DNA of 64,000 nt from Nitrospiria bacterium (GCA_919902495.1 CAKKRC010000041.1:30786-94785), one strand, 5' to 3'; numbered from the stretch's first letter, positions 1-62,668 are shown. The notes: generated by a model not told the origin, from the sequence alone. Program-made: numbers and translations.

Positions 1-87
1 AACACGAATAAGAACAGAACCTGATGTTAATTGTTAACTAAAGAAGTTCATTCGTGACATTTGTCCATTCGTGACATTCGTGTTCGC
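1..87. repeat. hairpin element with tandem-unit arms (CATTCGTG units), left arm cut by window edge
   Basis: AACACGAAT (1-9) is the reverse complement of ATTCGTGTT (76-84). The right arm 46-84 is tandem CATTCGTGA-type units. The 20-mer CCATTCGTGACATTCGTGTT (65-84) recurs exactly at 60172-60191. Confidence 0.6.
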
Positions 88-7726: not shown

Positions 7727-7899
7727 TCACTTCAGTGCGGAGTGTGGAGTTCGGAGTGCGATATTCGGAACAGTGAAACCAAGTTCCGCTATTCCTGTCT
7801 ATCCGTGCCATACGTGGCGAAACAAATATTCCCTGCTCTCATACCACCTGTATGACCCACGTCATACCCTTCCTCCGCCGGCAGCGGTATACTATAAGC

Positions 7900-10650: not shown

Positions 10651-10724
10651 GTACATTCCTCCTTCACCATACTTGGTCTGTTTTATTTCAAGTTCGGAAT
10701 TTCTCTGCGATCTCAGCGAGCTCG

Positions 10725-10755
10725 CCTAGAGGCGCCTACTTTTGGCTGCGGTAAA
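10725..10755 (+). repeat. conserved core repeat, copy 1 (GCGCCTACTTTTGG at 10732-10745)
   Basis: CCTAGAGGCGCCTACTTTTGGCTGCGGTAAA. The same 14-nt core occurs at 37598-37611, 47883-47896 and 62639-62652. Confidence 0.85.
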
Positions 10756-10786
10756 ACACTTTCGTTTAGTTCATAGGACAAATTGT

Positions 10787-19579: not shown

Positions 19580-19584
19580 AAGTA

Positions 19585-19692
19585 CCAGTCGACAGTCGTC
19601 AGTCTCTAGTCATACATCAGTCAGATTGCAATGGTTCGTGACTGGTTTTGACTGCCGACTATCGACCACCTCTCGACTATCTTTACGACTGC
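19585..19692. repeat. hairpin element with tandem-unit arms (CAGTCGN / CGACTGN units)
   Basis: Left arm CCAGTCGACAGTCGTCAGTC (19585-). Right arm GACTGCCGACTATCGAC... then TTTACGACTGC. Same sub-family as 23969-24067. Confidence 0.7.
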
Positions 19693-20630: not shown

Positions 20631-20658
20631 TCCGCAATCCGCAATCCGCATTCCGCAA

Positions 20659-21585
20659 TCATGTTCTTTTCTCCACCGATGCGATGAAGACATCCTCCAG
20701 TGACGGAAGGATCGCCCGATGGTCAAGCACGGCGATCCCCGACCGCGACAGGCTGTCAATGACCGATGCCGCCGCGGTGCCCTGCTCAAGGGCGATGTGC
20801 AGGCGGTCCCCGTACACGGTAACGTCCTTCACACCGGCCGTGTCCCGGGCGAGTGCCCCTGCTTCCCGCACGCGGTCCGGCCAAAGCTCGATCATCGGTA
20901 CATTGAGCGAACTGCGGACCTGGAGCGGCTCGCCCTCGAGGATGATGCCGCCCCTATGGATCAGACCGATGCGGGTGCACCGCTCGGCTTCGTCGAGATA
21001 GGACGTGGAAAGGAAGATCGTGACCCCTTCACGGAGGAGATCGTAAAGAATGCGCCAGAAGTCCCGGCGCGAGACCGGATCGACCCCGTTCGTCGGTTCA
21101 TCGAGCAGCAGCACCTCCGGCGTATGGACAAGGGCGCAAGCAAGGCCCAATTTCTGCTTCATCCCGCCCGAGAGCGCCCCGGCCAGCCTTTTCTGGAACG
21201 GATCGAGCCCGCTGAACGAAAGAAGCCGTTTGATCCGGTCCGCTCGTTCCCTTTTTGGGACCTCGTAGAGGTCTGCGTAGAACAGGATGTTCTCCAGCAC
21301 CGTCAGGTCCTCGTACAGGCCGAAGCGCTGCGACATGTAGCCTATCTGCCCCTTGATACCTTCCGGGTCCTCCCGAAGAGAAAAGCCGGCAACCCGGGCA
21401 TCACCCGCCGTCGGCTCCAGGATCCCCGCAAGAAGCCGCATGGTCGTGGTCTTGCCGGCTCCATCAGGCCCCACAAGACCATAGAGCTCTCCACGATCGA
21501 TGGCAAGATCGAGCTTGTTCACAGCATTGACGGTACCAAAGGAACGGGAAAGACCAGCGGAAGTGATCACGGGAGGCAGGGTCAT
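20659..21585 (-). CDS. ABC transporter ATP-binding protein
   Basis: Walker A GPDGAGKTTT, signature LSGGMKQKL, Walker B LLLLDEP. Confidence 0.9.
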   Translation of the reverse strand: MTLPPVITSAGLSRSFGTVNAVNKLDLAIDRGELYGLVGPDGAGKTTTMRLLAGILEPTAGDARVAGFSLREDPEGIKGQIGYMSQRFGLYEDLTVLENILFYADLYEVPKRERADRIKRLLSFSGLDPFQKRLAGALSGGMKQKLGLACALVHTPEVLLLDEPTNGVDPVSRRDFWRILYDLLREGVTIFLSTSYLDEAERCTRIGLIHRGGIILEGEPLQVRSSLNVPMIELWPDRVREAGALARDTAGVKDVTVYGDRLHIALEQGTAAASVIDSLSRSGIAVLDHRAILPSLEDVFIASVEKRT

Positions 21586-23951: not shown

Positions 23952-23968
23952 AATTCACCGTTCCACAA

Positions 23969-24067
23969 GCGTCGGCAGTCAGCAGTCGGCAGTCACAAGT
24001 CTTAGGCAGACAAAAGGAACAGATATCAGACTGCCGACTGACGACGATCGACTGTTTTACGACTGCC
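23969..24067. repeat. hairpin element with tandem-unit arms (CAGTCGG units)
   Basis: CAGTCGGCAGTC (23983-23994) pairs perfectly with GACTGCCGACTG (24029-24040). Tail TTTTACGACTGCC. Lies between rtcB and archease. Confidence 0.75.
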
Positions 24068-24068
24068 C

Positions 24069-24557
24069 CTACACATCCACCACGCACTGGGCCACATACC
24101 GGCCGTTCTCCTGACGAACGCTGAGCATATGATAGGTCGCACCCTTCACTTCAACATGAGCGCGATGCTTCCCCTGGTCAAGGTGCTCGCCCCAGGCCGT
24201 GCCTGCAAGCCTGTTCCCTTCGATCCTGACCTCGAACTTCGAGAAGACCATGCGTTCGATGTCGGAAACCGCGAGAAGCGAGTTCAACCATTCCACGAGC
24301 AGCTTTTCCTGATCGTCTGCCGTGACGTTCACGCCGCGGAACTCTTTCTGTTCTACCCGGGTGATATCGACCATGACCGAATAGAGCGCTGCAGCCGTGT
24401 TCGCGAACGCCTCTTCAGGCGTACTCCCGAATCCGCGTATGCCGATGTCCGCCTCATGCTCGAAGGTCTCGTAGTCCACTCCGCACTCCGCACTTCGCAC
24501 TTGGTCATTATCTTCCCCTTGTCCCCTTGTCCCCTTGTCCCCGCGTCCCCGTGTCAT
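24069..24557 (-). CDS. archease (RtcB activator); start uncertain
   Basis: Core DYETFEHEADIGIRGFGSTPEEAFANTA...GATYHML is archease-like. The first ~19 codons (MTRGRGDKGTRGQGEDNDQ) are read from a tandem octamer repeat. In-frame GTG alternatives are at 24500 and 24479. Confidence 0.75.
   Translation of the reverse strand: MTRGRGDKGTRGQGEDNDQVRSAECGVDYETFEHEADIGIRGFGSTPEEAFANTAAALYSVMVDITRVEQKEFRGVNVTADDQEKLLVEWLNSLLAVSDIERMVFSKFEVRIEGNRLAGTAWGEHLDQGKHRAHVEVKGATYHMLSVRQENGRYVAQCVVDV
24477..24555. repeat. one-armed tandem arrays (CACTCCG x4 degenerate; GTCCCCTT x5 degenerate)
   Basis: CACTCCGCACTCCGCACTTCGCACTTGG, then CCCCTTGTCCCCTTGTCCCCTTGTCCCCGCGTCCCCGTGTC. Confidence 0.85.
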
Positions 24558-25571: not shown

Positions 25572-25627
25572 TGTGTAGACTCCCTCTGTTCAATGCTCGC
25601 TGCTCGCTCCGCGTTCCGTGTACCTTC

Positions 25628-26582: not shown

Positions 26583-26906
26583 ATGAAAAAGGGAATCATT
26601 GTCGTACTGCTGATCGTATGTCTGGTTCTGCCGTTCTCAGCAATGGCGCAGAAGGTAGGCGGCGGTGACATCAAGTTCACCCCCAAGAACGCCGGTCCGG
26701 TGAACTTCAGCCACGAGTCCCATGTCAAAGGCAAAGGCATCAAGTGCACGGGCTGCCACTACCAGATCTTCCAGATGGCCCAGGGTTCGTACAAGATGGA
26801 CATGAACAAGATCACGAAGGGAGACTTCTGCGGCAAGTGCCACAACGGCCAAAAGTCGTTCGACGTGAAGGGAACCGATAATTGCGTCAAATGCCATAAA
26901 CCATAA
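26583..26906 (+). CDS. c7-type triheme cytochrome c, paralog 1
   Basis: Signal peptide plus GGGDIKF...FSHESH, and three CxxCH motifs (CTGCH, CGKCH, CVKCH). Confidence 0.85.
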   Translation: MKKGIIVVLLIVCLVLPFSAMAQKVGGGDIKFTPKNAGPVNFSHESHVKGKGIKCTGCHYQIFQMAQGSYKMDMNKITKGDFCGKCHNGQKSFDVKGTDNCVKCHKP

Positions 26907-26921
26907 ATAACAGGGGGTCCC

Positions 26922-27236
26922 ATGCGGAACGCCATTCTGTTGTTTGTCCTGCTGTTCCTGTTCACCACGGCAACCACAGCTTTTGCAGTCGGAGGCGGAG
27001 ACATCGCGTTTACCTTGCAAAAGGCGGACCCTGTCCATTTCAGCCATGACTACCACATTAAAACGCGCGGCATCAAGTGCGTGGCCTGCCACTTTCAGAA
27101 GTTCTCCAGGGGTCAGGGTTACGAGATGAAAAAAGAAGTGATCACGAAGCGTGATTTCTGCGAGCATTGTCATAACGGGATGAAGGGCTTTGACGCAGGA
27201 TCGACGAAGAACTGCACCCGCTGTCACAAGAAATAA
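26922..27236 (+). CDS. c7-type triheme cytochrome c, paralog 2
   Basis: Signal peptide plus GGGDIAF...FSHDYH, with CVACH, CEHCH and CTRCH. Confidence 0.85.
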   Translation: MRNAILLFVLLFLFTTATTAFAVGGGDIAFTLQKADPVHFSHDYHIKTRGIKCVACHFQKFSRGQGYEMKKEVITKRDFCEHCHNGMKGFDAGSTKNCTRCHKK

Positions 27237-27250
27237 CAAGGAGGCCGCGC

Positions 27251-27583
27251 ATGACGTTGAGAACCGTAGGGACCGCGCTCGTTGTTGGACTTTTTGTTCT
27301 TGCTCCGCTGACCGCCCTGGCAAAGATAGGAGGCGGAGACGTCGAATACAAGCCCAAGGGGGCGGGCAAAGTGGTCTTCGCCCATGACTACCATGTGAAC
27401 CTGAAAGGGCAGAAGTGCAGCAACTGCCACTACAAGACCTTTCAGATGAAGGGCGGCGATGCCGCCTATAAGATGGATATGTCGATGCTCACAAAAGGCC
27501 AGTTCTGCGGCAGCTGCCACAATGGTCAGAAGGGTTTTGATCTGAAGGCGGCGGACAACTGCAAACGCTGCCACAAGGACTAA
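27251..27583 (+). CDS. c7-type triheme cytochrome c, paralog 3
   Basis: Signal peptide plus GGGDVEY...FAHDYH, with CSNCH, CGSCH and CKRCH. Confidence 0.85.
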   Translation: MTLRTVGTALVVGLFVLAPLTALAKIGGGDVEYKPKGAGKVVFAHDYHVNLKGQKCSNCHYKTFQMKGGDAAYKMDMSMLTKGQFCGSCHNGQKGFDLKAADNCKRCHKD

Positions 27584-31563: not shown

Positions 31564-33003
31564 TTACGGTTGATCGGATTCCGGAGCGGCCATCATCGTT
31601 TTACGCTCCGTCAGGACCACCGAGCCGGGCTTTGCCCCCTTCGGCTTTTTCACGTATGCGGCACGGGTATACGCCACCGGCACCTTGGCGGAATTCCTCC
31701 CCTTGCTGTACCAGGCCGCAAGGGATGCGGCCTTTTTGAGGACCCCTTCGGGAATGTCGCGCTTCCCGGGGTTCCTGACGACCACATGGGAACCGGGCAT
31801 GCCTTCGGCGTGGAGCCAGAGATCATCGGGCCGCGCAAGTTTCATGGTGATGTAGTCATTGCCGGCAGCGCTCTTTCCCACGAGGATCTCCCATCCCTCA
31901 TGCCCGATCGTCCTGAAAGGCGTCGCAGTCACGATACGCGTTCCCGAGACCTTTCCTGCCCCCTCCCTGATATATCCCCGCCGCGCCAGCAGCGACCTGA
32001 TAGCGAGCAGGCCGTCCCGATCGACCGCGGCACGCAGGTCCTCCTGCACCGACGTCAGGAACGCCGCCTCGTCACGGGCCTCGGCGAACCGCTCCCGCAT
32101 GACCGCGAGCCCGGCCTTCGCCTTCTTGTATCGTTGAAAATACCTGCTTGCGTTCTCCGCCGGTGAGCGCGACGGATCAAGGGCGACAGACACCATCGTT
32201 CCGTCATAACCGGAAAGTTCCGCGGTCATCTGCCCTTTCATCAGCAGGTGTTTGTTCGCCAGGACCAGTTCACCCATCAGGCGGAAGGTGTCACCCTGCT
32301 CCGCCCCCGCGACGTCCTTCGCCACGGCATCACGCCTGCGCACCGCTTTTTCCGCGGCCCTCCTGACGACGGAAACAAGTTCCTGCCTGAGCGATGCGGT
32401 CTCTTGTTCGGCAACGGTACGTTCGTACCATTTCTCGACGGCCCTGTTCACGGGAGCGGGCCCCGTATACTCCTCGGGGGGTGAAAGCAGGACGACCCCG
32501 CTCTTCGCTGCGAACGAACCCGGCCTTGGTTCCGGCGGGTCGTACTGCAAGCCGGCAAGGAACGGTCTCCTGACCTTGTCCCCCGGCGGCACCGGGCGGA
32601 ACACAGCCAGGATCGCATACTGTTGATCGGTCAGCAGGAGATTAGCGGATGATCCGATGAGCTCGAAAATGAGAACATGCACGGCACCTCGCGTGGAGAA
32701 TTGGAGCTCTGCCACGCGGTCCCCGTTCACCAGGCGTATTGCATCGACCCGTCCTCCGGTCAGATGTTTTTTCAGGGAAAGAAAGAAACCGGCGGCGACA
32801 CGGGTGCCGGACGGCTTATGAGAAACAAGGTGGATGCGGGGAAGAGCGCGTTCCGGGGACAGGAAAAGGATGTAATTCTTCCGTTTCTGATGCAGCACGA
32901 GGAAGAGGTTATGATCGGCCGCCTGGACCACCTTGTCCACCCGCGCACCGGGAAGGAGGGATGCCAGTTCATCGACGACCTTTACGAGGATATCAAGATC
33001 CAA
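31564..33003 (-). CDS. NFACT-family protein (FbpA/RqcH-like)
   Basis: NFACT-N pattern (VVDELASLLPGARVDKV...ALPRIHLV...FFLSLKKHLTGGRV) and a C-terminal DUF814-like WLHAEGMPGSHVVV. Confidence 0.8.
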   Translation of the reverse strand: MDLDILVKVVDELASLLPGARVDKVVQAADHNLFLVLHQKRKNYILFLSPERALPRIHLVSHKPSGTRVAAGFFLSLKKHLTGGRVDAIRLVNGDRVAELQFSTRGAVHVLIFELIGSSANLLLTDQQYAILAVFRPVPPGDKVRRPFLAGLQYDPPEPRPGSFAAKSGVVLLSPPEEYTGPAPVNRAVEKWYERTVAEQETASLRQELVSVVRRAAEKAVRRRDAVAKDVAGAEQGDTFRLMGELVLANKHLLMKGQMTAELSGYDGTMVSVALDPSRSPAENASRYFQRYKKAKAGLAVMRERFAEARDEAAFLTSVQEDLRAAVDRDGLLAIRSLLARRGYIREGAGKVSGTRIVTATPFRTIGHEGWEILVGKSAAGNDYITMKLARPDDLWLHAEGMPGSHVVVRNPGKRDIPEGVLKKAASLAAWYSKGRNSAKVPVAYTRAAYVKKPKGAKPGSVVLTERKTMMAAPESDQP

Positions 33004-33136
33004 TCAGCGTTCCTTTCGGAGTGAATGTCAAACGCACCCTAAAGGGTGCGGCTACCAAGATTATAAAATGAATGCTCTCAGATATGGTAGCCGCAGGCTT
33101 TAGCCTGCGAAATCAGTTTTTCAGCAGCGCGTTAGA

Positions 33137-33174
33137 CTGGATTCCCGCTCAGGACCGCTGCGGGAATGACGATA
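33137..33174. repeat. hairpin repeat CTGGATTCCCG...CGGGAATGACGA, copy 2
   Basis: ATTCCCGC/GCGGGAAT stem. The flanks are identical to copy 1 at 5135-5170. Confidence 0.7.
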
Positions 33175-33248
33175 GTGAGACTGCGAGCTTGCAAATTATC
33201 GCATACGGCCGTTATTCCGCATTCCGCAATCCGAAATCCGCAATGGGA

Positions 33249-33989
33249 TCACGGCAACTGCAGCATCTTATGCACCTGCGGGATCACGCGCACATCCTCG
33301 AGGATCTCCAGGGCAATGTCCTGGAACAGGATAAGCGACTCCACCGGGGGCGACACGGGGCCGCTTGCCGGCTGAATAATGAACGGGACCGTTCGGTCCT
33401 GCTCCGCTACCAGGCGGGCGGCAATGAGGATCTCATCGGGCGTCGTGCTCCCGCTGACCACGGACTTCACGAACCGCTCTATCCCTTCCGTTGCGGACAG
33501 GAATTTCCGGTGCTCGTCCCAGTGCGCCCGCTGGCCCGTTGCTGATGGCAGTTTTATGTCCATGCTCACCACATCGATCAGACCGGCAAGCGCGCGCATC
33601 TCTGCGAAATGGACGCCGTTGGTCTCGAGATAGATCCGGAACATCTTCCGCTCCGAGGGCAGCCATTCCTGAAGGAACGGCCGGTGCAGCAACGGCTCGC
33701 CGCCGGTGATGCTCATGACCGGACGAGATACGCCGGGAATGCGCAGGCGTGAGCAAAGTCCGGAGAGGCCTGCCGGACTGAGGGGATTCGGCACTGATTC
33801 GCGCTCAAAGGAACCGGGTGAGACCTGCGCCCGGCAGTTCCTGACCTCGGATCCCGAAACGTTCTTGACCGCATCGGGCGTGTCACAGTACGCGCAGCGC
33901 AGGTCACAGCCCATGAAACGGACAAAGATGTGCCGTTGGCCGACCCACGGCCCCTCGCCCTGAACGGACGCGAATACCTCGTCGATCAT
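33249..33989 (-). CDS. queE: 7-carboxy-7-deazaguanine synthase-like radical SAM enzyme
   Basis: MIDEVFASVQGEGPWVGQRHIFVRFMGCDLRCAYCDTP is a QueE-type N-terminus. An alternative ATG is at 34001. The longer ORF-track N-terminus is unsupported. Confidence 0.75.
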   Translation of the reverse strand: MIDEVFASVQGEGPWVGQRHIFVRFMGCDLRCAYCDTPDAVKNVSGSEVRNCRAQVSPGSFERESVPNPLSPAGLSGLCSRLRIPGVSRPVMSITGGEPLLHRPFLQEWLPSERKMFRIYLETNGVHFAEMRALAGLIDVVSMDIKLPSATGQRAHWDEHRKFLSATEGIERFVKSVVSGSTTPDEILIAARLVAEQDRTVPFIIQPASGPVSPPVESLILFQDIALEILEDVRVIPQVHKMLQLP

Positions 33990-35576: not shown

Positions 35577-35601
35577 GCGAGAATACCATAGACAACAAAA
35601 A

Positions 35602-35632
35602 GGGTTAGGAGAACATCTCCTAACCCTTTTTT
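35602..35632. terminator. bidirectional rho-independent terminator
   Basis: AAAAA-GGGTTAGGAG-AACAT-CTCCTAACCC-TTTTTT. Confidence 0.8.
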
Positions 35633-35681
35633 ATTTCATCGTCTGGAAGAACCATGAACCTAGAACTTAAATGAAAGCACA

Positions 35682-35854
35682 TTTCTCGCAAAGACGCAAA
35701 GGCGCAAAGAAAGCAGACCCTTCACAAATAAACCATATTTAGCAATGAAAGAAAATGAAAAGCCGGCACCTGATCGATAGTATTCTCAATACCATCAGCA
35801 ATTAAATCTTCTATCTTTGCCGTTCTTTGCGTGCTTGGCGGCTTTGCGAGAGAC
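35682..35854 (+). repeat. MITE-like hairpin element (CGCAAAG units, TIR TCTCGCAAAG/CTTTGCGAGA)
   Basis: Left arm TTTCTCGCAAAGACGCAAAGGCGCAAAGAAAGC. Right arm ...TCTTTGCGTGCTTGGCGGCTTTGCGAGAGAC. Homologous to 47783-47907, including the loop motif CAATACCA...TTAAA.ATCTTC. Confidence 0.8.
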
Positions 35855-35899
35855 AATATCCGTCGTTGCTCATGTCCTGTCGTAATTCCGCCACTTCGG

Positions 35900-36619: not shown

Positions 36620-36811
36620 CGATGAACATTCCTCCTTGGCAATTATTGGACAATAGATCATTCAAGAAACGACCTTTGACACGGATCAATGCGGATAAAC
36701 GTCGGATAAGATCGGATTTGTTACAAGGGAATTTATTTCTTTATCCGCATTTATCAGAAGTTGATCCGCTTCTTCAGTGTCTAAAAGCTCTTTCTTGAGA
36801 TTTGTTCGAAT

Positions 36812-37471: not shown

Positions 37472-37486
37472 AACAGCTCCTTAAAC

Positions 37487-37622
37487 TTTTCACCGCGGAG
37501 ATCGCGGAGCACGCAGAGGTTAAATTCTTGCACTGGACCCATAACAGTTGCTTCGTCTTTCTCGGCGCTCTCCGCGTCCTCGCTTAGAAGCTTAGAAGCG
37601 CCTACTTTTGGCTGCGGTAAAC
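37487..37622 (+). repeat. hairpin element with tandem-unit arms (CGCGGAG units) plus conserved core
   Basis: Purine arm CACCGCGGAGATCGCGGAGCACGCAGAGG (37491-37519). Pyrimidine arm ...CGCTCTCCGCGTCCTCGC (to 37583). CTTAGAAG duplicated. Core GCGCCTACTTTTGG at 37598-37611. Closing CTGCGGTAAA. Confidence 0.8.
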
Positions 37623-38567
37623 TTACGTTTTGTGCCTTTTACCTTGGTAACTTCCCACGCTTTCCATGTACGAGTCCAGGTCGTTCAGGAACTCGCTCCG
37701 CGTCCTGTTCCAAATGGGCGCGATAAGGATATCCTCGGGAGCCGCTGCGAACAATCGCTGCAGCACGATGTCCGGCGAAAGCCGCTCCAGGAATTCCGAG
37801 ACCATCGCAATATACTCCTCGTATGTGAATGTCGGGAACGGCTTTGCCGCGTACTGCTCCGCCAAAAGCGTATCCTTGATGACCTGCAGTTGGTGCAGTT
37901 TCAGGAAGCCGATGGGAAGACTTGATAGTTCCTTCGCCATATCAAGCATGTTTTCCCGTGTCTCCGTCGGGAAACCCAGGATCAAGTGCGCGCCCACCTT
38001 GATACCCCGTCCCGCCGTCATCTCCAGGGCGTTTTTAAAGCATGCGTAATCATGTCCCCGATTGATGAACTCCAGGGTGCGGTCATGGATGGACTGCAGT
38101 CCGTACTCGACGAGGATGAAATGGTCCTTCGCGAGATCTGCAAGTAATGCGATCTTCCCTTCATCAACGCAGTCCGGACGGGTACCAATGGCAAGCCCGA
38201 CCACCCCGGGATGGTCCAGGGCCTCGCGGTAGAGCCGTTCCAGCGTCTCGACCGGCGCGTAGGTGTTGGTGAAGGGCTGAAAATAGACGATGAACTTCTC
38301 GGCGCCATACCGTCGTCGAAGGTAGGGTATCCCCTTTTCGATCTGCACACCCACCGAGGCCGCGCTCGTGCATGCGGTCGGCCGAAAACTGTCGTTATTG
38401 CAATAGATGCAGCCGCCCACGGATACCGTTCCGTCGCGGTTCGGGCAGGTGAACCCGGCGTCAACGTTCACCTTATACACCGCCTGACCGTACAGGTCCT
38501 TCATGTGCTGGCCGAAGGCGTTGTAGCGCCTCGTGGTCTGCCTTATTGGTAACAATGCTGTTTTCAT
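37623..38567 (-). CDS. TIGR01212-family radical SAM protein
   Basis: Start taken at MKTALLPIRQ. YKVNVDAGFTCPNRDGTVSVGGCIYCNN is typical of this family. Confidence 0.85.
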   Translation of the reverse strand: MKTALLPIRQTTRRYNAFGQHMKDLYGQAVYKVNVDAGFTCPNRDGTVSVGGCIYCNNDSFRPTACTSAASVGVQIEKGIPYLRRRYGAEKFIVYFQPFTNTYAPVETLERLYREALDHPGVVGLAIGTRPDCVDEGKIALLADLAKDHFILVEYGLQSIHDRTLEFINRGHDYACFKNALEMTAGRGIKVGAHLILGFPTETRENMLDMAKELSSLPIGFLKLHQLQVIKDTLLAEQYAAKPFPTFTYEEYIAMVSEFLERLSPDIVLQRLFAAAPEDILIAPIWNRTRSEFLNDLDSYMESVGSYQGKRHKT

Positions 38568-38850
38568 GGGATCGATGCAGTAATATACCAGAGAGGGAGG
38601 AAAAAATCCATTCAGGAAATAGGACCGGTCTTTCGTTGTCGATCCACTGACGGTCGGTTGTTCTGTCCCTTTGCAGCCGGAGGGCCTATATTCCAGCGCT
38701 CTAATGGGCAGCGCCCGCTGCAAGCGGATCTGCGGATGTGCGGTCTATGGATCATTGATTGCAATATAAATAGATATCACCTGTTCGAAGAATGCGCTAT
38801 GTACCCGCCCTGCCGTGCTACCGTAGTATATTGAGAATTGAACAGTATGA

Positions 38851-40465: not shown

Positions 40466-40523
40466 TGTCTTTCTGTCTTTTGATATCTATTCCGCACTCC
40501 GCACTTCGCACTCGGCACTCGGC

Positions 40524-43112: not shown

Positions 43113-43628
43113 TCAGAACTTGCCGTCAATGGCCTTCAAAATGCCCTGGAGCAGTGTCGTAGGTGTCGGGGGACATCCGGGTATGACCGCATCCACGGGG
43201 ATCACCTTGCCTACTCCGCCCAGCGACGCGTAGCTCTCTCCGAACACGCCTCCATTGCAGCCGCAGTCACCCACGGCTACAACGATCTTGGGAGGCGGTG
43301 TCGCGGCGTAGGTCCGCTTGAGGGCGATCTCCATGTTATGGGAGACCGGTCCCGTCACCAGCAGCAGGTCCGCAAAACGGGGCGAAGCGGTGAAATGGAT
43401 GCCGAACCGCTCACAGTTGTAGAACGCGTTATTGATGGCGTGGATCTCAAGCTCGCAGCCGTTGCACGACCCTGCATCGACCTGCCGGATGGCGAGGCTC
43501 CGCTGGAACCGGCTCCGTATCGCCTCCTCCAGTTGCACGCCTATCTTCCCGATCTCGGGATCGGTGATCGGCGGCAGCGGCTCGGTGACGATGCCGGTGC
43601 GAAAAATGTGTTTCAAAATGCGGATCAT
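43113..43628 (-). CDS. NuoB/HycG-like small subunit of hydrogenase-related complex (EhrS-like)
   Basis: DAGSCNGCELE, VGDCGCNGG and IPGCPPTP retain the four Cys of the proximal [4Fe-4S] cluster. Confidence 0.85.
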   Translation of the reverse strand: MIRILKHIFRTGIVTEPLPPITDPEIGKIGVQLEEAIRSRFQRSLAIRQVDAGSCNGCELEIHAINNAFYNCERFGIHFTASPRFADLLLVTGPVSHNMEIALKRTYAATPPPKIVVAVGDCGCNGGVFGESYASLGGVGKVIPVDAVIPGCPPTPTTLLQGILKAIDGKF

Positions 43629-43634
43629 AAAACT

Positions 43635-43813
43635 CCAAAAGTACCTAATTTAACCACGGAGACACGGAGTCACGGAGAAAAGCGAACCAATGTTGCAACA
43701 ATTAATTAATATATTTCATTACTGCAAGCAAACACATCATTCATTCGTTTTTAAATGCAGTAAGACATTTTGTAGATGTTGCCCCTCTCCGTGTCTCCGT
43801 GCCTCCGTGGTGG
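43635..43813 (-). repeat. hairpin element (CACGGAG units) with degenerate core, opposite orientation
   Basis: CCAAAAGTACCTAA (43635-43648) resembles the reverse complement of the core. Arms ACCACGGAGACACGGAGTCACGGAGAAAAGC (43653-43683) and GCCCCTCTCCGTGTCTCCGTGCCTCCGTGGTGG (43781-43813) flank an AT-rich loop. Confidence 0.8.
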
Positions 43814-43822
43814 TATTTGACT

Positions 43823-45394
43823 TTACAGATCATGCCCCGAATAGGACTGATTGAAGCTCTTGTTGCACAGCGGGAAGTCCGGGACGATATTCCCGTGAAT
43901 GCACTGCTCCAGGCCCAGCCAGTTGACGCTCGACGGGTCCCGGACCATGCAGCGATTGATCTCCCCATTCGGCCCCGACTGCACCCAATAAAGGATCTCC
44001 CCGCGCCAGCCCTCGACCGCGGCGAATCCGGACCGGTCCGGCAATGGATCGCCGATCGGGACGATGAGCCCGTCGGACGGAACGGTCCTCAGGATCTCCC
44101 TGATGATCCTGATTGACTCGCGGATCTCCTCCACCCGAACCCATGCCCGCGCATGCGCGTCGCCGGATATGAGCACCGGTACGTTCACACTGATGCGGTC
44201 ATAGGGAGGGAACGGATGATCTACGCGGCAATCAAGGTTCAGGCCGCTCGCCCGCGCCACGATCCCCACCGCGCAGAGGTCACGCGCCTGCTCCGGCCTG
44301 AGCACGCCGGCGTCCCGCACCCGGTCCTCGAGCGATGCGTTCTCGTCATAGATCGTCACGAGTGGCTCGTACTCTCTCTCCAGCCAGGCCAGCTCGTTGG
44401 TGATCGCCAAGACCCCCTCCCCGTCGATATCTACGACGACCCCCCCGGGAACGATACGGTCCATCAGGAACCGGTGGCCAAAAAGGTGATGGTTCGTGCG
44501 AAGCAGGATCTCCTTGAGGCGGTGGAACTGATAAAAAAGGAAGGTGAAAGCAACATCGTTGCAAATGGCGCCCAGGTCCCCCAGATGATTGGCGATGCGC
44601 TCCCTTTCGAGAAACAGCGCACGGAGCCATTGCGCGCGATCAGGCAGGACGGTGCCGGTCAATGCTTCGACCGCGCGGGAGTAGGACAGACTGTGGGCAA
44701 CGGTCGTATCTCCCGAGACCCTGCCTGCCAGGCGCGCCGCCTCCTGCCAGGAGAACGATTCGAATCGTTTCTCGATGCCTTTATGCACATACCCCAGTTT
44801 TTCTTCCAGATTGATGACATCCTCGCCCATTGCCTGGAACCGGAAATGGCCCGGCTCAATGATCCCGGCATGGACCGGCCCGACCGGGATCTCGTAGATC
44901 CCATCGCCCTCGGCCCGGATCCAGCGATACTCGCCAGGGACCCGCTGCATCGTTGTTTTCGCGTCAAAGGTCTTTCTGAGCGGCCACGCGTTCGCGGGCC
45001 AGTCCTCGTGCTTGATCCATGGCCGGTCGTCGGGATTGCCGACGGGCGTAAGCCCCATGAGGCTCTGGATCTGCCGCTCGAAACGGTAGGCTGCCGCATA
45101 TTTCTTTGTCAGGCTAGGAAACGTCGCATCGCCGACCGGGACCTCGGTCTTAATAACGAGATACTCCTGCTCCCTCCGGAAGCAGGCGAAAACAGCGAAC
45201 CCTCTGCCGAAAGGCGTCTCGTCCGCCGCCCACTCCGCGGCAAGAAGCGCATAGTCCTTCTTGAGCGTCCGTGCCGCATCAGCGAACCGTTTCCGGGGGA
45301 CGACCAGGGACGACACCGAGGACGGCGCGAGGCTGTCATCTTCCCGCGCATCCTTCCCCAGTTCGTTCAGAACAAGGCTTTTCAGTCTGATCAT
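43823..45394 (-). CDS. fused NuoC/NuoD-HycE-like large subunit lacking Ni-Fe cysteine ligands (EhrL-like)
   Basis: GPVHAGIIEPGHFRF and LGYVHKGIEK are as in HycE/HyfG. The L1 motif reads RVSGDTTVAH (44693-44722) and the C-terminal motif reads NQSYSGHDL (43826-43852), so no Cys ligands remain. Confidence 0.85.
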   Translation of the reverse strand: MIRLKSLVLNELGKDAREDDSLAPSSVSSLVVPRKRFADAARTLKKDYALLAAEWAADETPFGRGFAVFACFRREQEYLVIKTEVPVGDATFPSLTKKYAAAYRFERQIQSLMGLTPVGNPDDRPWIKHEDWPANAWPLRKTFDAKTTMQRVPGEYRWIRAEGDGIYEIPVGPVHAGIIEPGHFRFQAMGEDVINLEEKLGYVHKGIEKRFESFSWQEAARLAGRVSGDTTVAHSLSYSRAVEALTGTVLPDRAQWLRALFLERERIANHLGDLGAICNDVAFTFLFYQFHRLKEILLRTNHHLFGHRFLMDRIVPGGVVVDIDGEGVLAITNELAWLEREYEPLVTIYDENASLEDRVRDAGVLRPEQARDLCAVGIVARASGLNLDCRVDHPFPPYDRISVNVPVLISGDAHARAWVRVEEIRESIRIIREILRTVPSDGLIVPIGDPLPDRSGFAAVEGWRGEILYWVQSGPNGEINRCMVRDPSSVNWLGLEQCIHGNIVPDFPLCNKSFNQSYSGHDL

Positions 45395-45499
45395 TTCATG
45401 TCATCCTATAGATAGACCACTTCACCACAGAGACACAGAATAAAGCAAAGATCTGTTTTCACCGCGTCCCCGCGTCTCCGTGTCCCCGCATCGGACGTA

Positions 45500-46948
45500 T
45501 TACTTCAGCAGCCCCACCGCCGTATGGAACCAATCGGCAAGGAACTTCGGCATATAGATGCCGATCCCGAGGACAAGAAACATGTGTAAGAGGACCGGTA
45601 CGTGGGCCACCTTCAGGAACTTCTGGTGCGGCGGAACCTCACCGGTGACCATGGGCTGTACCTTCCGAAAGAGCGCGGCAAAGGTAACGCCAAGCCCCAG
45701 GAGCAGGAACGGCGCCATGAGCGGCGCGTCCTTGATCGTCGCGGTAAGGATCAGGAACTCGCTCATGAACACGCCGAAGGGCGGCATGCCCACGATCGCC
45801 ATGACGCCGAACGTCATTCCCCAGCCGACCAGCGGGTTCCCCCGGATAAGGCCCTGGATCCTGTCCATGTCCTGCGTTCGGTGCATCTGCGACGCGTGTC
45901 CGACGGTAAAGAAGATCGCTGACTTGGTCAGGCTGTGGACCAGCATGTGCAGCAATGCGCCGAAGGTGGCAACAGGGCCGCCGAGGCCGAAGGCGAAGGT
46001 GGTGATCCCCATGTGTTCGATCGACGAATAGGCGAACATCCTCTTGATGTCCTTTTGCCTGAGCAGCGAGAACGAAGCGACGATGACCGAGAGAATGCCA
46101 AAGCCCATCATGATGTTCCCGGCGTGGTGCGTGCCCGTGGACCCGTCCACGAGGACCTTGCACCGCACCAGCGCGTACAGGGCGATATTGAGCAGAAGCC
46201 CGGAGAGGACAGCCGAGATGGGCGTTGGTCCTTCGCTGTGCGCGTCGGGCAGCCAGTTATGTACCGGCACAAGTCCCACTTTCGTTCCGTACCCGACCAT
46301 GAGAAACACAAAGGCAAGGGACAGGATGGTCGGTTCGAGCTGGTCGCTCACCTGGCTGAGATTCGTCCAGAGCAGCGCCTCACCGCCCGCCCCGAGCACC
46401 TTTTCCGCCGCAAAGTACAGCAGAACGGTTCCGAACAGCGCCAGCGCGATGCCCACGCCGCAGAGGATGAAGTACTTCCATGCAGCTTCGATCGCCGACG
46501 GTGTGCGATAGAGCGATACTAGCAGGACCGTGGACAGGGTTGCGAGCTCCATGGCGATCCAGAGGACACCCACGTTGTTCGTAAGCAGACAGAGCAGCAT
46601 GGCGAAGATGAAAAGCTGGAACATGGCATGATAGAACCGTATCCGGCGGTGCCCGATGGTCCCATGCTCCCGCTCCCGTCGCATATAACGCCTGCTGAAC
46701 AACGCCGTCGTCATGGAAACGAACGAGGTCAGCACCGCCAGGTAGACATTGAAGGCGTCGACAAAGAAGAACTTGTCCCCTGCCAGCATCGGTCCGTGGT
46801 GATAGACCTCCAGCGCAAGCGCGATGCCGGCAACGAAGGTCGCCGCCGAGCCCAGGATGTTCACTTCAGGCGCGAACTTCCGGTCGCCGATGAAGGCCAG
46901 CGCCAGCGATGCGACCAGCGGAACACATAAGAGAACAAGAAGGATCAT
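45500..46948 (-). CDS. NuoM/N-HyfF-like antiporter-type subunit
   Basis: 482-aa, ~14-TM protein of the proton-conducting membrane transporter family (WLPDAHSEGPTPISAVLSG). Confidence 0.85.
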   Translation of the reverse strand: MILLVLLCVPLVASLALAFIGDRKFAPEVNILGSAATFVAGIALALEVYHHGPMLAGDKFFFVDAFNVYLAVLTSFVSMTTALFSRRYMRREREHGTIGHRRIRFYHAMFQLFIFAMLLCLLTNNVGVLWIAMELATLSTVLLVSLYRTPSAIEAAWKYFILCGVGIALALFGTVLLYFAAEKVLGAGGEALLWTNLSQVSDQLEPTILSLAFVFLMVGYGTKVGLVPVHNWLPDAHSEGPTPISAVLSGLLLNIALYALVRCKVLVDGSTGTHHAGNIMMGFGILSVIVASFSLLRQKDIKRMFAYSSIEHMGITTFAFGLGGPVATFGALLHMLVHSLTKSAIFFTVGHASQMHRTQDMDRIQGLIRGNPLVGWGMTFGVMAIVGMPPFGVFMSEFLILTATIKDAPLMAPFLLLGLGVTFAALFRKVQPMVTGEVPPHQKFLKVAHVPVLLHMFLVLGIGIYMPKFLADWFHTAVGLLK

Positions 46949-46960
46949 GAGACCTCAATA

Positions 46961-47049
46961 CATTGGAAATATCAAATTGTAAATTAGAAATTGAATATTT
47001 TTAACGACAGCTTCTCGATCCATCAATTTGATATTTACAATTTGCAATG
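46961..47049. repeat. AT-rich hairpin element (CAAATTG/ATATCAAATTG units)
   Basis: CATTGGAAATATCAAATTGTAAAT... versus ...ATCAATTTGATATTTACAATTTGCAATG. Lies between the HyfE-like and HyfF-like genes. Confidence 0.65.
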
Positions 47050-47060
47050 ACGCGTCAGCG

Positions 47061-47726
47061 TCAATCTTCTTCCTTCAACCTCGCCATCTGGTCCACGTCG
47101 AGGCTGTCAAAGGTCGTATTGATGTGGAAAAAGAAAATACCGAAGATGAATGCCGCGATAAGGATGTCCAGGGCGACGCCGAGTTCGACCACCAGCGGCA
47201 TCCCGTAGGTCGCGCTGGTGGCGGCGAAAAAGAGGCCGTTCTCCATGGCGAGGAAACCGATGATCTGGGTGACCGCGTGCCGCCGGGTGATCATCATAAG
47301 GAGGCCGAGCATCACGGTGGCAAGCGCGACCGCAAGCGTCGACTTGGTCATCAGGGTGGACAGTTCACGGATCGGCGCGGTCAGATGGTAGGAAAAGATC
47401 ACCAGGGCAATTCCGATAAGCATGGTCGTCGGGACGTTCACGATCGTCTCCACCTCGCGGTGGATCTTCAATTTCCGGATCAGCACATGAAGGATGTACG
47501 GAAGCAGGATGACCTTGATCGCCAGGGTCAGCACCGATGAGATATACAAGTGATGCGATTGGGCAGCGAATCCAACGACGGCGGTGCTGATGGAGAGGAA
47601 CAATCCCTGCCAGGCAAACAGGTGCAGGAGCGCGTACATCCTGCGCTGCACGAGCATGGCAAAGGCCGTGAGCAGGATAAGCGCTGCCAGAAGGCTGTTC
47701 AGCTGTGCGGCAAAAGCGTAGCTCAT
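47061..47726 (-). CDS. HyfE-like membrane subunit
   Basis: 221-aa 7-TM protein. The GFLAMENGLFFAA motif is typical of hydrogenase-4 component E. Confidence 0.8.
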   Translation of the reverse strand: MSYAFAAQLNSLLAALILLTAFAMLVQRRMYALLHLFAWQGLFLSISTAVVGFAAQSHHLYISSVLTLAIKVILLPYILHVLIRKLKIHREVETIVNVPTTMLIGIALVIFSYHLTAPIRELSTLMTKSTLAVALATVMLGLLMMITRRHAVTQIIGFLAMENGLFFAATSATYGMPLVVELGVALDILIAAFIFGIFFFHINTTFDSLDVDQMARLKEED

Positions 47727-47782
47727 CGGTTCCCTTCCTGAGATAACGACGGAATCAACTTAAAATTAAAATGACAAGACTA

Positions 47783-47907
47783 TTTTCTCGCAAAGTCGCT
47801 AAGCTCGCAAAGAAAAGCAAATCCAGACTGACAATACCAAGACTTAAAGATCTTCTTTGCGTCCTTTGCGGCTCGCCTTAAAGCGCCTACTTTTGGTTGC
47901 GAGAGAC
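47783..47907 (+). repeat. MITE-like hairpin element (CGCAAAG units) with conserved core
   Basis: Left arm TTTTCTCGCAAAGTCGCTAAGCTCGCAAAGAAAAGC. Right arm TCTTCTTTGCGTCCTTTGCGGCTCGCC. Core GCGCCTACTTTTGG at 47883-47896. Closing TTGCGAGAGAC pairs with the left end. Confidence 0.85.
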
Positions 47908-47962
47908 GCCGTTTGGTTCTGCTTATCCGGTTTGGATCTTAAAACATCAAACGCCGTCCATT

Positions 47963-48907
47963 CTATTCCAGGATAAAGAACGACAGCATCCCGAGCGTGG
48001 CAAAAAGGAAAGCGCTCCCGAGAAATTCAGTCACGCGGAATATCCGCATCTTTGCCAGTCCGGTCTCGATCAGGACAAGCCCGACCCCGGAGATGCCAAG
48101 CTTCAGGGACATTATCAGAAAGGAGGAAGCAAGGCCCGCGGCCCCTCCTGCGGCATCGATACCCCAGGGGAAGAACACGGCGATACCGAGGGTGATGAAC
48201 AAAAAAAGCTTCATCATCTTCGCCCATTCGATGAGCGCAAGATGCCGGCCGGAATATTCGAGGATCATCGCTTCGTGGATCATGGTAAGTTCCAGATGCG
48301 TCGCAGGATTATCGACCGGCACCCTCCCCGTCTCTGTCAACGCAATGAGAATGAAGGCCAGGAGCGCGAATGCAAGGGACGGCCGAAGGATGGAATATCC
48401 CTGGGATACCACAATGGCCATCTGGGACAGCGACGTCGACTTGCTTGCCAGGGAAACAGCGAAGATCGCCATGAGCATGGCCGGCTCGGCAAGCGACGCG
48501 ATCGTCATCTCCCTGCTCGAGCCCATACCGCCGAATGACGTGCCGATGTCCATGCCCGCCAGCGCTGTAAAGAACCGTGCAATGGCAAAGAGCGCCACGA
48601 GCGCGATAACGTCTGCCGTGGCCGACAACGGCAGGTCAACAGAGATGATCGGGATGATGCCACCGGCCAGTACGGTGACGCCAAAGACGAGGTACGGAGT
48701 GGACCGGAATATCCACGAGGCGTTCTCGGCAAGAGCTACGTCCTTGGAAAACAATTTACAGAGGTCGCGGTAGGGCTGGAGCAGGCTCGGCGATGTGCGT
48801 CCCTGCGACCAGCACTTCACCATTTTCACCCACCCCGCGAACAGCGGAGCCGCAAAGAGAAGTACAAAGACCTGGATGAGCTCTATGAGCAACGGATGGA
48901 CCTTCAA
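47963..48907 (-). CDS. NuoH/HyfC-like membrane subunit
   Basis: 314-aa 8-TM protein of the complex I subunit 1 family (GRVPVDNPATHLELTMIHEAMILEYSG). Confidence 0.85.
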   Translation of the reverse strand: MKVHPLLIELIQVFVLLFAAPLFAGWVKMVKCWSQGRTSPSLLQPYRDLCKLFSKDVALAENASWIFRSTPYLVFGVTVLAGGIIPIISVDLPLSATADVIALVALFAIARFFTALAGMDIGTSFGGMGSSREMTIASLAEPAMLMAIFAVSLASKSTSLSQMAIVVSQGYSILRPSLAFALLAFILIALTETGRVPVDNPATHLELTMIHEAMILEYSGRHLALIEWAKMMKLFLFITLGIAVFFPWGIDAAGGAAGLASSFLIMSLKLGISGVGLVLIETGLAKMRIFRVTEFLGSAFLFATLGMLSFFILE

Positions 48908-48954
48908 TCAATGACTCCTGACGCGATACGCATATTCCGCAAAATGATCTTCAT

Positions 48955-50997: not shown

Positions 50998-51350
50998 CGT
51001 GCCTCCCCTGTCCTGACCGGGAGGGGATGTTGTGTACTGCTGGTTTCACTGTTCGGAAGGACTATTCGGGAAGGTACTGGTGTGAATAGAGATAGAGATA
51101 TGACTGCCGGTAAATTGTGCGATGCATTCATTTTTCAAAAAACCGTCACCGTAATGTATCCAGGGTGGATGTGTCAGAACGAAAAAACTTTACAATAAAT
51201 GAAGGGGTTCTGTCAATGATAAAATGCTTTCCCGGAGAGGAAAACGCGGGTTGATGTGGCCCTTCCCCACCCAGCCTCCTCCTTTATTGATCGTCTCAAA
51301 ATAGAAACGACATGACCGAGATCCGTCTCCCCAACACCTCTATCATAATT

Positions 51351-51404
51351 CCCCTCACCCCTGCCCCTCTCCCCATTGTGGGAGAGGGAAAAAGGGAGAG
51401 GGTG
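51351..51404. repeat. palindromic CCCTCTCCC/GGGAGAGGG element
   Basis: Inner 9-bp stem 51365-51373/51380-51388, flanked by further C-rich and G-rich runs. Confidence 0.75.
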
Positions 51405-55432: not shown

Positions 55433-55524
55433 CATTCAACGTTCAAGGCTTAAAGTTCAAGGCATGAATCGGTAGTTGGCATAAGACCTTCCTTAAACCT
55501 AAAACATTGAACTTTGAATGATCT
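55433..55524. repeat. hairpin element with tandem-unit arms (GTTCAAGG units)
   Basis: CATTCAACGTTCAAGGCTTAAAGTTCAAGG versus the reverse complement of CCTTCCTTAAACCTAAAACATTGAACTTTGAATG. Abuts the lpxL-family stop codon. Confidence 0.7.
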
Positions 55525-55526
55525 TA

Positions 55527-60094: not shown

Positions 60095-60221
60095 CACCAC
60101 GGAGGCACAGAGTCACGGAGAAAATACTTTGCTAAGAGTTGTTTATAATGTTCTCATTCGTGTCATTCGTCCCATTCGTGACATTCGTGTTAAGGCTTCG
60201 CATCGTCCCTGACTTTTAATG
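60095..60221 (+). repeat. hairpin element (CACGGAG arm / CATTCGTG arm) with degenerate core
   Basis: Arm CACCACGGAGGCACAGAGTCACGGAGAAAA and arm TTCTCATTCGTGTCATTCGTCCCATTCGTGACATTCGTGTT pair with G-T wobbles on the plus strand. The loop contains TATAAT (60145-60150) upstream of rnr. Confidence 0.7.
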
Positions 60222-62473: not shown

Positions 62474-62520
62474 GTGAACTAATCCCTTGCTGTCTAATTT
62501 TTTTTCTCATTGGCTCCTTA

Positions 62521-62660
62521 TCGCCGCGTCTCCCCGTCCCCGTGTCACCGTGTCTGCTTTATCCCCTTGTCACCTTGTCGGCTTCCTTCCACTTGTCAGT
62601 TCTTTCCCCGCGTCTCCGCGTCACCGTGTCGCTTAGAAGCGCCTACTTTTGGCCCCGCGT
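62521..62660 (+). repeat. pyrimidine-rich tandem-unit arrays ending in conserved core
   Basis: CGCGTCTCCCCGTCCCCGTGTCACCGTGTC..., CCCCTTGTCACCTTGTCGG..., and CCCCGCGTCTCCGCGTCACCGTGTCGCTTAGAAGCGCCTACTTTTGG (core at 62639-62652). Confidence 0.8.
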
Positions 62661-62668
62661 CCGTCTTA

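Follow-up and report, generated by a model that had tools for sequence, protein, structure and literature searches.

Genomic context and distribution of the arrays

The DNA considered here, hereafter the window, is a stretch of 64,000 nucleotides from a Nitrospiria bacterium (GCA_919902495.1, CAKKRC010000041.1:30786-94785) and belongs to a 585-kb contig from the 0.1 µm fraction of the Hainich groundwater metagenome. Judging from RtcB and its neighbouring genes, the lineage is an uncultured Nitrospirota: the best matches are 'Nitrospirota bacterium' metagenome-assembled genomes (91% identity), with UBA9217 at 82%. The window has a GC content of ~58%, and its genes between 10 and 59 kb lie mostly on the - strand. 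Pfam domains, which cover 50 of the ~60 called genes, correspond to ordinary housekeeping functions and include no transposase or integrase, a first-pass annotation of the sequence having likewise noted no transposase; a scan of the window for tRNA and tmRNA genes also returned none. Our subject is what lies between these genes, namely ~20 copies of an element built from short tandem arrays, with at least 10 different units within 64 kb. The focal copy (37472-37625) fills the gap between a radical-SAM gene and a PHP-domain gene.

A full element consists of a conserved outer terminus, 2-5 tandem units of 7-9 nt, an AT-rich spacer of variable sequence (11-370 nt overall, 28-132 nt in the window), and the mirrored units and terminus. 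The units of the 5' arm are purine-rich, and single and mixed arms also exist. Elements begin 0-15 nt past a stop codon and reach up to ~10-35 nt ahead of the next start codon, also within operons. In the focal case, an AAGGAG ribosome-binding site separates the 3' arm from the ATG of the PHP-domain gene (37471-37469), and the module CTCCGCGATCTCCGCGGTGAAAAG of this arm recurs upstream of a non-orthologous ATG in a related genome (L005).

Using Tandem Repeats Finder (TRF; period 7-9, at least 2.6 copies), we identified 15 arrays in the 8,946 intergenic bases of the window (period 7-9, 2.7-5.2 copies) and three in the 55,054 coding bases, a 30-fold higher intergenic density. By comparison, 200 dinucleotide shuffles of the same spacers yielded a mean of 0.16 arrays and a maximum of two. 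Altogether ~21 of the ~50 gaps of at least 50 nt hold arrays, i.e. ~40% of intergenic gaps. Gaps downstream of stop codons do carry arrays, and none of the four divergent, promoter-only gaps does. The first-pass annotation described a family with a shared architecture, copy-specific units and the same unit in both arms; this description is supported, and each unit was found at the position given for it. Its claim of a hairpin layout at 13 or more sites holds for 10-11 inverted pairs, which fold better than shuffles (z -7.6 to -2.0), and fails for about half of the sites, discussed below.

Known classes of structured elements do not account for the arrays. Rfam, which the same annotation had proposed to search, gives no match for the whole window at the gathering threshold or at E<=0.1, so the family is absent from it, and the annotation rightly set CRISPR aside. 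We rejected an identity as intrinsic terminators: the 3' arms have no U-tract and carry instead GGTGAAAAG and a ribosome-binding site, and a terminator scan showed no enrichment at the elements, picking only a separate, canonical terminator (35597-35631) that adjoins the CGCAAAG hairpin at 35682-35854. Promoters in the AT-rich loops were rejected as well, as promoter-like sites are not enriched there (10 vs 8.1 expected); none was scored in the focal loop (37520-37556), and the 35682-35854 element lies between two convergent stop codons, where a promoter is not needed. Finally, most units lack the arrangement of G-quadruplex simple sequence repeats (SSRs), i.e. at least four G3+ tracts at heptamer spacing: G-tracts occur only at 24514-24555 (sense CAAGGGGA x5) and in parts of 62520-62668.

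Sequence families and compensatory variation

One unit, CACGGAG (43635-43813 in the window), defines a widespread family. Scanning JGI metagenomes with the pattern CACGGAGNCACGGAGNCACGGAG detected it in at least 120 contigs; among the matches listed, the median GC is 0.60, and a complementary partner array lies downstream in 45 and upstream in two. The loops of these pairs span the entire 11-370 nt range and are mutually unrelated, while the base between units is a purine. The arms end in terminal inverted repeats (TTCAC-CACGGAG...CTCCGTG-GTGAA), to which the focal terminus is homologous, and both ACCACGGAGGCACGGAGACACGGAG and CTCCG(T/C)GGTGAAA are found again in other genomes and at loci that are unrelated. 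Paired heptamer arrays are also present in Desulfobacterota-like, Thermodesulfobacteriota and Pseudomonadota loci, and elements of this kind are common among bacteria of soil and groundwater. The first-pass annotation proposed that a hairpin rather than a sequence is preserved; instead, units and termini are conserved and group into discrete sequence families that span loci, genomes and phyla.

Among 32 aligned pairs of the CACGGAG family, the stem runs ~5 bp beyond the invariant units with compensatory variants (for example TCAC/GTGA, TAAC/GTTA, TCTCT/AGAGA and GGGC/GCCC). Covariation reaches 0.162, compared with 0.100±0.011 after shuffling (0/500 shuffles), and exceeds all slid controls. The covariation check suggested in the first pass is thus positive for the stem extension and negative for the base between units (see below). 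No 2-5 nt direct repeat was found at any boundary offset of these 32 pairs, hence no target-site duplication. Among the matches listed, no neighbouring gene family, either transposase or regulon, recurs at the 120 metagenome loci (maximum four); this includes the REP-associated Y1 transposase RAYT, which is also missing from the Pfam domains of the window. A literature search with the literal arm sequences found no paper.

Turnover at orthologous junctions

The archease-RtcB gene pair is syntenic in ~15 Nitrospirota genomes. At eight orthologous junctions compared among 12-15 Nitrospirota genomes, arrays begin 0-10 nt past the upstream stop codon, their sense strand is rich in purines, and the unit family varies by genome. 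For example, the junction between an ABC ATPase gene and its permease gene holds CAGTCG hairpins in the window and in the closest relative, L004 (in which the 19585-19692 hairpin is kept), a CACGGAG hairpin in L011, AGGCAGG x8 plus a CTCCGCG arm in L005, and CAGGAGT hairpins in L006 and L014. At another orthologous junction, three genomes have 0-1 nt and three others have arrays of 30-75 nt. Across genes, L003 shares 93-94% identity with L004, but at two junctions they show no homology, which indicates turnover by replacement instead of drift. Array copy number at one junction ranges from x3 to x13.6 among relatives.

Reads of the source genome cover the arms at 4-12 times the baseline depth, and joints connect them to other loci with the same arms and with loops that either differ or have homologous edges, indicating mosaic combinations similar to those of bacterial interspersed mosaic elements (BIMEs). 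For the CGCAAAG arms, depth and joints point to ~3-10 further loci; the two window copies (47783-47907 and 35682-35854) have the termini TCTCGCAAAG...TTGCGAGAGAC in common. No copy-number polymorphism was detected in the assembled contigs of the source population, which drop rare variants.

The archease-RtcB gap provides a separate observation. Three loci (L029, L033 and L039) carry near-identical GAACATC/GATGTTC heptamer hairpins there, upstream of RtcB, in bins labelled as an ANME-2 archaeon ('Methanogaster') and Deltaproteobacteria. This likeness suggests either mis-binning or a transfer that involved the entire locus.

Folding of the mRNA strand

Gene orientation is secure for 19 elements, and the sense strand folds more stably than the antisense strand in 17 of them (p = 7e-4); G-U pairs in these 19 elements number 114 in sense and 48 in antisense. 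The element at 45418-45493, for instance, folds at -33.3 kcal/mol in sense vs -18.4 kcal/mol in antisense. At four-fold-degenerate sites the G/C skew is close to nil (0.017) and the T/A skew modest (0.127), so that mutation bias alone is an unlikely cause of this strand difference. Arrays, including one complete pair, are also present in soil metatranscriptome contigs, with unrelated flanks. Some of these contigs end at arrays, and we rejected such ends as RNA 3' ends because repeats break assemblies.

Relation to known repeats

Elements of this kind have already been described in Geobacter metallireducens and in Xanthomonas, so that the earlier statement that they belong to no described class has to be abandoned. 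The cultivable strain G. metallireducens GS-15 has ~50 annotated pairs of such arrays, described by Aklujkar et al. (2009) under the name Gmet_I and built of 3-5 hepta- or octanucleotides in tandem (PMC2700814): class 1 consists of four tandem GTTGCTYN, class 2 of three tandem TCTCCGTS[Y] (21 pairs), and class 3 of five tandem MTYCTGA. The two sites of a pair occupy opposite strands and are separated by a variable distance, the purine arm standing to the left of the pyrimidine one; one of the pairs falls in the proB-proA gap, and insertion sequence (IS) elements are inserted at a constant distance from class 1 sites (PMC2700814). Classes 1-3 share with the window elements the 3-5 tandem units of 7-8 nt, the opposite-strand pairing at variable distance with the purine arm on the left, and the intergenic, intra-operon location. 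Moreover, the class 2 unit TCTCCGTS is identical to that of window 43787-43809 (43786-43809 reads TCTCCGTG TCTCCGTG CCTCCGTG), and class 3 MTYCTGA, when reverse-complemented, gives the CAGGAGT/CAGAAGT units found in L006, L014, L015 and L038. In contrast, the window units CGCAAAG, CAGTCGG, CAAATTG, GTTCAAGG and CACGAATG match no described class, and the window represents a different phylum (Nitrospirota) with many more unit families per genome, ~half single arrays, and a small dispersed insert inside arms. The Gmet_I sites were published as 'putative global regulator binding sites', with IHF/HU DNA sites as the hypothesis (PMC2700814), which the strand asymmetry found here does not favour.

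According to Rehm et al. (2015), a Xanthomonas genome contains 70-75 convergent pairs of arrays of the heptamer GGGAATC; the single or paired state of a site is usually kept between species, and array length varies (PMC4692102). Both systems thus have intergenic heptamer arrays, single or in convergent inverted pairs; Xanthomonas differs in having one G-tract unit with G-quadruplex potential, whereas many families coexist in the window and most units are unable to form such structures. Neither study gives an experimental test of the function of the pairs (PMC2700814, PMC4692102), nor did we find one elsewhere in the literature searched, where the paired arrangement is mentioned only in passing, for these two taxa. 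Heptamer SSRs were reviewed by MacGregor (2015) together with the TAACTGA repeats of Beggiatoaceae (PMC4679880). These repeats and the cyanobacterial short tandemly repeated repetitive (STRR) heptamers resemble the window arrays in being intergenic tandem heptamers near coding boundaries, with a patchy distribution across phyla and a proposed post-transcriptional role, but they are almost always direct (169 direct sets vs one indirect repeat), lie just upstream of start codons, and have one unit per genome (PMC4679880).

Repetitive extragenic palindromic (REP) sequences and their BIME and REPIN combinations (Bertels & Rainey 2011, PMC3116915) are also short extragenic inverted doublets forming hairpins in single-stranded DNA or mRNA, with decayed singlets, several families per genome and mosaic combinations; they too are targeted by IS elements and lie at 3' ends and between cistrons (PMC3116915). 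However, a REP is itself a palindrome, whereas the arms described here are tandem direct repeats without an internal palindrome; REPIN spacing is fixed, whereas it varies here even within the CACGGAG family; and the RAYT that is typical of REPINs was not detected near the elements, in the window or at the 120 loci among the matches listed. MITEs (miniature inverted-repeat transposable elements) with hairpin transcripts include Correia, ERIC and RUP. They share with our elements terminal inverted repeats, a size of ~90-190 bp, an intergenic location, co-transcription and hairpin formation. The elements differ from them by the absence of target-site duplication, by internally repetitive arms, and apparently by an interior that is not conserved across most copies (CACGGAG loops are unrelated, while CGCAAAG copies share loop edges).

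What is new here is, on the one hand, the CACGGAG family in at least 120 metagenome contigs, with its conserved termini and compensatory stem extension, and, on the other hand, the differing or absent families at orthologous junctions and the better folding of the sense strand in 17 of 19 elements.

Possible function and origin of the elements

The best-supported interpretation, which we hold tentatively and with slightly less than even confidence, is that the elements are REP/BIME-like mosaic intergenic repeats acting as intercistronic or 3' mRNA hairpins. Since they lie between a stop codon and the next start codon, also within operons, they would be transcribed inside mRNAs. Their two arms could pair into a long hairpin with one mismatch per unit which, by analogy with enterobacterial REP/BIME, would be a block to 3'-to-5' exonucleases and thereby determine how stable the upstream mRNA segment is; the same hairpin would face the terminating ribosome and stand ahead of the next ribosome-binding site. 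Tandem arms could also pair in several registers, so that replication slippage would alter stem length without destroying the stem, making the structure quickly tunable.

Several results weigh against this interpretation. About ten other sites are single arrays or have non-complementary arms, so that ~half of the elements are unable to form a hairpin. The focal site, annotated as a hairpin, does have the CGCGGAG-like unit, but its fold is marginal (37472-37625, z -1.7, 16 of 200 shuffles equally stable), because an insert splits its 5' arm. In the 32 CACGGAG pairs, the base between units does not covary, 18/32 being paired as expected by chance for a purine opposite a pyrimidine. Among 20 metagenome CACGGAG pairs, folding favours sense and antisense equally (10 vs 10), with strand calls from a crude GC3 (third codon position) gene caller for which 48/60 stop-codon positions match self-trained calls in the window. 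The RNA contigs carry no strand or end information, and the runs may contain contaminating DNA. Lastly, unit sequences are strongly conserved across phyla, more than a mere hairpin needs, which points to protein recognition or recent spread.

Alternatively, the elements may be selfish, non-autonomous mobile DNA of the REPIN/MITE type; their arms would be the ends recognised by an enzyme whose gene lies elsewhere in the genome, and a hairpin in single-stranded DNA would then matter during mobilisation, any mRNA effect being incidental. We regard this as unlikely, though far from negligible. It would explain the discrete families with conserved termini across loci, genomes and phyla, the occupied, empty or differently occupied orthologous junctions of close relatives, and the ~3-10 additional copies of the arms that this genome contains, some of which have loop edges that are homologous. 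Single arms may represent halves left by decay, like REP singlets (PMC3116915), the IS elements at a fixed distance from G. metallireducens class 1 sites recall those at REPs (PMC2700814), and a 25-nt dispersed insert has colonised arms. A purely DNA-level parasite, however, does not predict the folding bias towards the mRNA strand, and neither a transposase in the window (Pfam, as above), nor a recurrent neighbour at the 120 listed loci (maximum four), nor a target-site duplication in the 32 pairs was found. In addition, loops of 11-370 nt without mutual relationship are unlike MITE or REPIN copies, and tandem-repeat arms unlike REP-type palindromes. A further alternative is local SSR growth: a seed of 7-9 nt, in many cases a GGAG of Shine-Dalgarno type, would be expanded by slippage within neutral spacer DNA, and template switching would create the inverted partner and maintain the likeness of the arms, without any function. 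Among the long SSRs of prokaryotes, heptamers are given by the literature as the most common class, GGAG or GGA occurs in many units, arrays occupy whatever spacer is free from the stop codon to the ribosome-binding site, copy number at one junction varies from x3 to x13.6 among relatives, and the inverted repeat reaches into locus-specific flanks, as a local inverted duplication would. Nevertheless, arms of 23-30 nt and termini that are identical at unrelated loci and in different phyla are not the product of independent slippage. Template switching is also hard across loops of up to 370 nt, the population assemblies show no copy-number polymorphism, and the sense-strand G-U excess is left unexplained, so that we consider this origin quite improbable.

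Two further alternatives invoke binding proteins, on DNA or on RNA. Arms serving as double-stranded sites for nucleoid or global regulators (IHF/HU-like), each binding a multimer and the pair looping the DNA, correspond to the published hypothesis for G. metallireducens (PMC2700814) and would suit the conserved units and the two-fold symmetry of the pairs. We find this hardly credible, as at least 10 units in a 64-kb window would require as many proteins, a spacing of 11-370 bp fits no single fixed geometry, and a 7-8 bp period mismatches the helical repeat; arrays are moreover found downstream of stops and in 0/4 divergent promoter-only gaps, and the mRNA strand folds asymmetrically. On RNA, arrays might be single-stranded landing pads, each unit read by one subunit of an RNA-binding oligomer (CsrA-, S1-, Csp- or HutP/TRAP-like), the complementary arm being a masking anti-site. 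The 3-5 units at a fixed 7-8 nt period, the GGA/GGAG cores of many units (CACGGAG, CAGGAGT, GTGCGGA, CAAGGGGA), and the sense purine-richness of this lineage's single arrays at every junction examined are in line with such pads, and a similar proposal exists for the Beggiatoaceae TAACTGA repeats (PMC4679880). But GGA is absent from the CGCAAAG, CAAATTG, CACGAAT, CAGTCGG and GAACATC families, no candidate protein is linked to the arrays, and single CACGGAG arrays at metagenome loci show no clear sense purine bias (with noisy strand calls), which makes landing pads very improbable. Since GGA is missing from several families, we did not take CsrB-like CAGGAUG mimicry or Shine-Dalgarno 'standby' arrays as the main model either.

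A bolder version of the mRNA hairpin interpretation, which we consider rather unlikely, is that of a cross-phylum class of self-propagating hairpins whose arms evolve in concert, whose units are read by a dedicated protein, and which act as evolvable 'dials' of both mRNA stability and translation between cistrons in numerous soil and anaerobic bacteria. A changed base in one unit would then be passed along the array by slippage, and templated copying or selection would carry it to the opposite arm, as a change from CACGGAG/CTCCGTG to CGCGGAG/CTCCGCG with unchanged termini could illustrate. More generally, unit families common to Geobacter, Nitrospirota and at least 120 soil and sediment contigs, and absent from Rfam, would represent a widespread unannotated layer of operon regulation if they shape intercistronic mRNA stability or translation, or a repeat type without known mobilising enzyme if they are mobile. 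They also have practical effects: assemblies of metagenomes and metatranscriptomes break at them, and they create spurious small open reading frames.

Individual elements and the dispersed insert

Coordinates of the elements are collected in Table 1. Folding was evaluated as z-scores against shuffles of each element. All four intercistronic gaps between 43629 and 47962 hold an element; they belong to a six-gene operon (43113-50997, - strand) of the energy-conserving, group-4 membrane-bound [NiFe]-hydrogenase / Mrp-complex-I-like type, with NuoL, H, K, N, CD-fusion and B-like genes. Two sites of the first-pass annotation do not form the hairpins assigned to them: 60095-60221, given as a CACGGAG hairpin, has CACGGAG on the left, CATTCGTG on the right, and arms that are not complementary (z +0.5), and 7735-7835, given as a looser example, is a single purine array (z -0.8). 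At 47775-47910, too, folding better than shuffles is not confirmed (z -0.9). Conversely, about nine single arrays had been overlooked (20631-20660, 24477-24555, 33216-33244, 40491-40520, 38724-38743, 25594-25620, 10702-10756 and 62520-62668).

Table 1. Parts of the focal element and other array-bearing sites of the window, with folding z-scores (folded range in brackets)
Feature	Coordinates	Strand	Remarks
TAA stop codon, radical-SAM gene	37625-37623	-	directly 5' of the focal element in mRNA sense
Focal outer terminus of 5' arm, sense GTTTACCGCAG	37612..37622	-	directly after radical-SAM TAA
Focal small dispersed insert, 33 nt, sense CCAAAAGTAGGCGCTTCTAAGC-TTCTAAGC-GAG	37579..37611	-	splits first 5'-arm unit
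Focal 5' arm, mRNA sense GCGAGGACGCGGAGAGCGCCGAGAAAG, CGCGGAG-like units	37557..37583	-	pairs with 37487-37519
Focal AT-rich loop	37520..37556	-	between focal arms
Focal 3' arm, sense CCTCTGCGTGCTCCGCGATCTCCGCGGTGAAAA	37487..37519	-	ends 15 nt before PHP-domain ATG
CACGGAG hairpin	43635..43813	-	NuoCD-like/NuoB-like gap; arms 43655-43677 and 43787-43809, 92% complementary, 107-nt loop; z -7.6 (43629-43822)
CGCAAAG hairpin	35682..35854	-	downstream of TPR gene, convergent gap; z -3.6 (35677-35860)
CGCAAAG hairpin	47783..47907	-	NuoH-like/NuoK-like gap; insert at ~47870-47896; z -0.9 (47775-47910)
CAAATTG hairpin	46961..47049	-	NuoK-like/NuoN-like gap; z -3.1 (46949-47060)
CACAGAG / CCGCGTC-type hairpin	45418..45493	-	NuoN-like/NuoCD-like gap; z -2.3 (45395-45499)
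CAGTCG hairpin	19585..19692	-	ABC ATPase/permease gap; z -2.0 (19580-19692)
CAGTCGG hairpin	23969..24067	-	archease/RtcB gap; z -2.4 (23965-24068)
GTTCAAGG-family hairpin	55433..55524	-	z -4.6 (55425-55526)
CGGATAA-unit hairpin	36684..36755	-	absent from the first-pass list; z -4.0 (36680-36790)
CACGAATG-family hairpin	1..87	-	cut by window edge
Chimeric site	60095..60221	+	CACGGAG 5' arm and non-complementary CATTCGTG array
Single arrays, sense GTGCGGA x3.6 and CAAGGGGA x5.2	24477..24555	-	fill radical-SAM/archease gap
Single array, sense TTGCGGA x4.3	20631..20660	-	occupies the entire gap separating two ABC ATPase genes
Single array, sense TTGCGGA x4.1	33216..33244	-	directly 3' of stop codon
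Single array, sense GTGCGGA x4.3	40491..40520	-	TRF
Single array	38724-38743		
Single array	25594-25620		
Single purine array, AGTGCGG x3.9	7734..7760	+	after stop codon of + strand gene
Three-array mosaic (ACACGGGG/ACACGGTG, CAAGGGGA/CAAGGTGA, GACGCGG)	62520..62668	-	with dispersed insert 62625-62652
Half element	10702..10756	-	TTTACCGCAG terminus, insert, degenerate CGCAGAG units; no 3' arm

The 14-mer GCGCCTACTTTTGG occurs exactly four times in the window (10732, 37598, 47883 and 62639). Described initially as a tail following the closing arm, it is actually part of a separate insert located inside an arm. This insert (25-33 nt, sense CCAAAAGTAGGCGCYTCTARGCGAG) has a constant orientation and is always found in the first unit of the 5' arm, at 37579-37611, 47870-47896, 62625-62652 and 10718-10745, with a degenerate copy at 43635-43654. 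The focal copy contains an internal 8-nt duplication, TRF calling 37582-37599 as GCTTAGAA x2.2, and the counterpart of the focal terminus, TTTACCGCAG at 10746-10756, likewise stands ahead of the insert. Among the 202 loci examined, no copy was found outside same-genome loci. The insert resembles the 21-27 nt 'small dispersed repeats' of Nostoc.

Other features of the window

A second hairpin repeat family, with CCYTC/GGGAG motifs (CCTCTCCCCCGAGGGGAGAGG, CTCCCCTCCCTTCGATGGGAGGGGA), occupies 3540-3616, 51340-51410, 53500-53620 and 63935-64000. It fits the description of the G. metallireducens 'class 4' sites (pentanucleotide CCYTC) and further copies lie upstream of RtcB in L026 and at one L005 junction. 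Small palindromic families lie at 5140-5172 and 33130-33172 (GGATTCCCG...CGGGAATGACG), at 5820-5850, 9380-9410 and 9470-9500 (CCCCGCAGC...GCTGCGGGG), and at 33033-33109 (25-nt inverted repeat CGCACCCTAAAGGGTGCGGCTACCA / TGGTAGCCGCAGGCTTTAGCCTGCG). A read depth of ~9 times the baseline over 33000-33516 in the source population indicates that these palindromic repeats are multi-copy, and similar CTGCGGGG hairpins are found at junctions in L003 and L004. A GGAA x8 microsatellite (62437-62469, + strand) in the 3' end of the RNase R gene encodes a Lys/Glu-rich tail and borders the 62520-62668 mosaic.

Two further observations concern coding sequences. The peroxiredoxin (AhpC/TSA) gene at 9525-10142 (+ strand) has an in-frame TGA at the position of the peroxidatic cysteine (DFTFV*ATE vs the usual FTFVCPTE), and a small hairpin, CCGCTCTGGCAGAGCGG, lies ~15 nt downstream of this TGA. 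The gene looks like a selenocysteine peroxiredoxin with a selenocysteine insertion sequence (SECIS) element, which gene callers would split in two. Finally, three tandem paralogous genes for small cytochromes of the c7 type (26583-27583, + strand) are represented by 1-3 copies among syntenic Nitrospirota loci.

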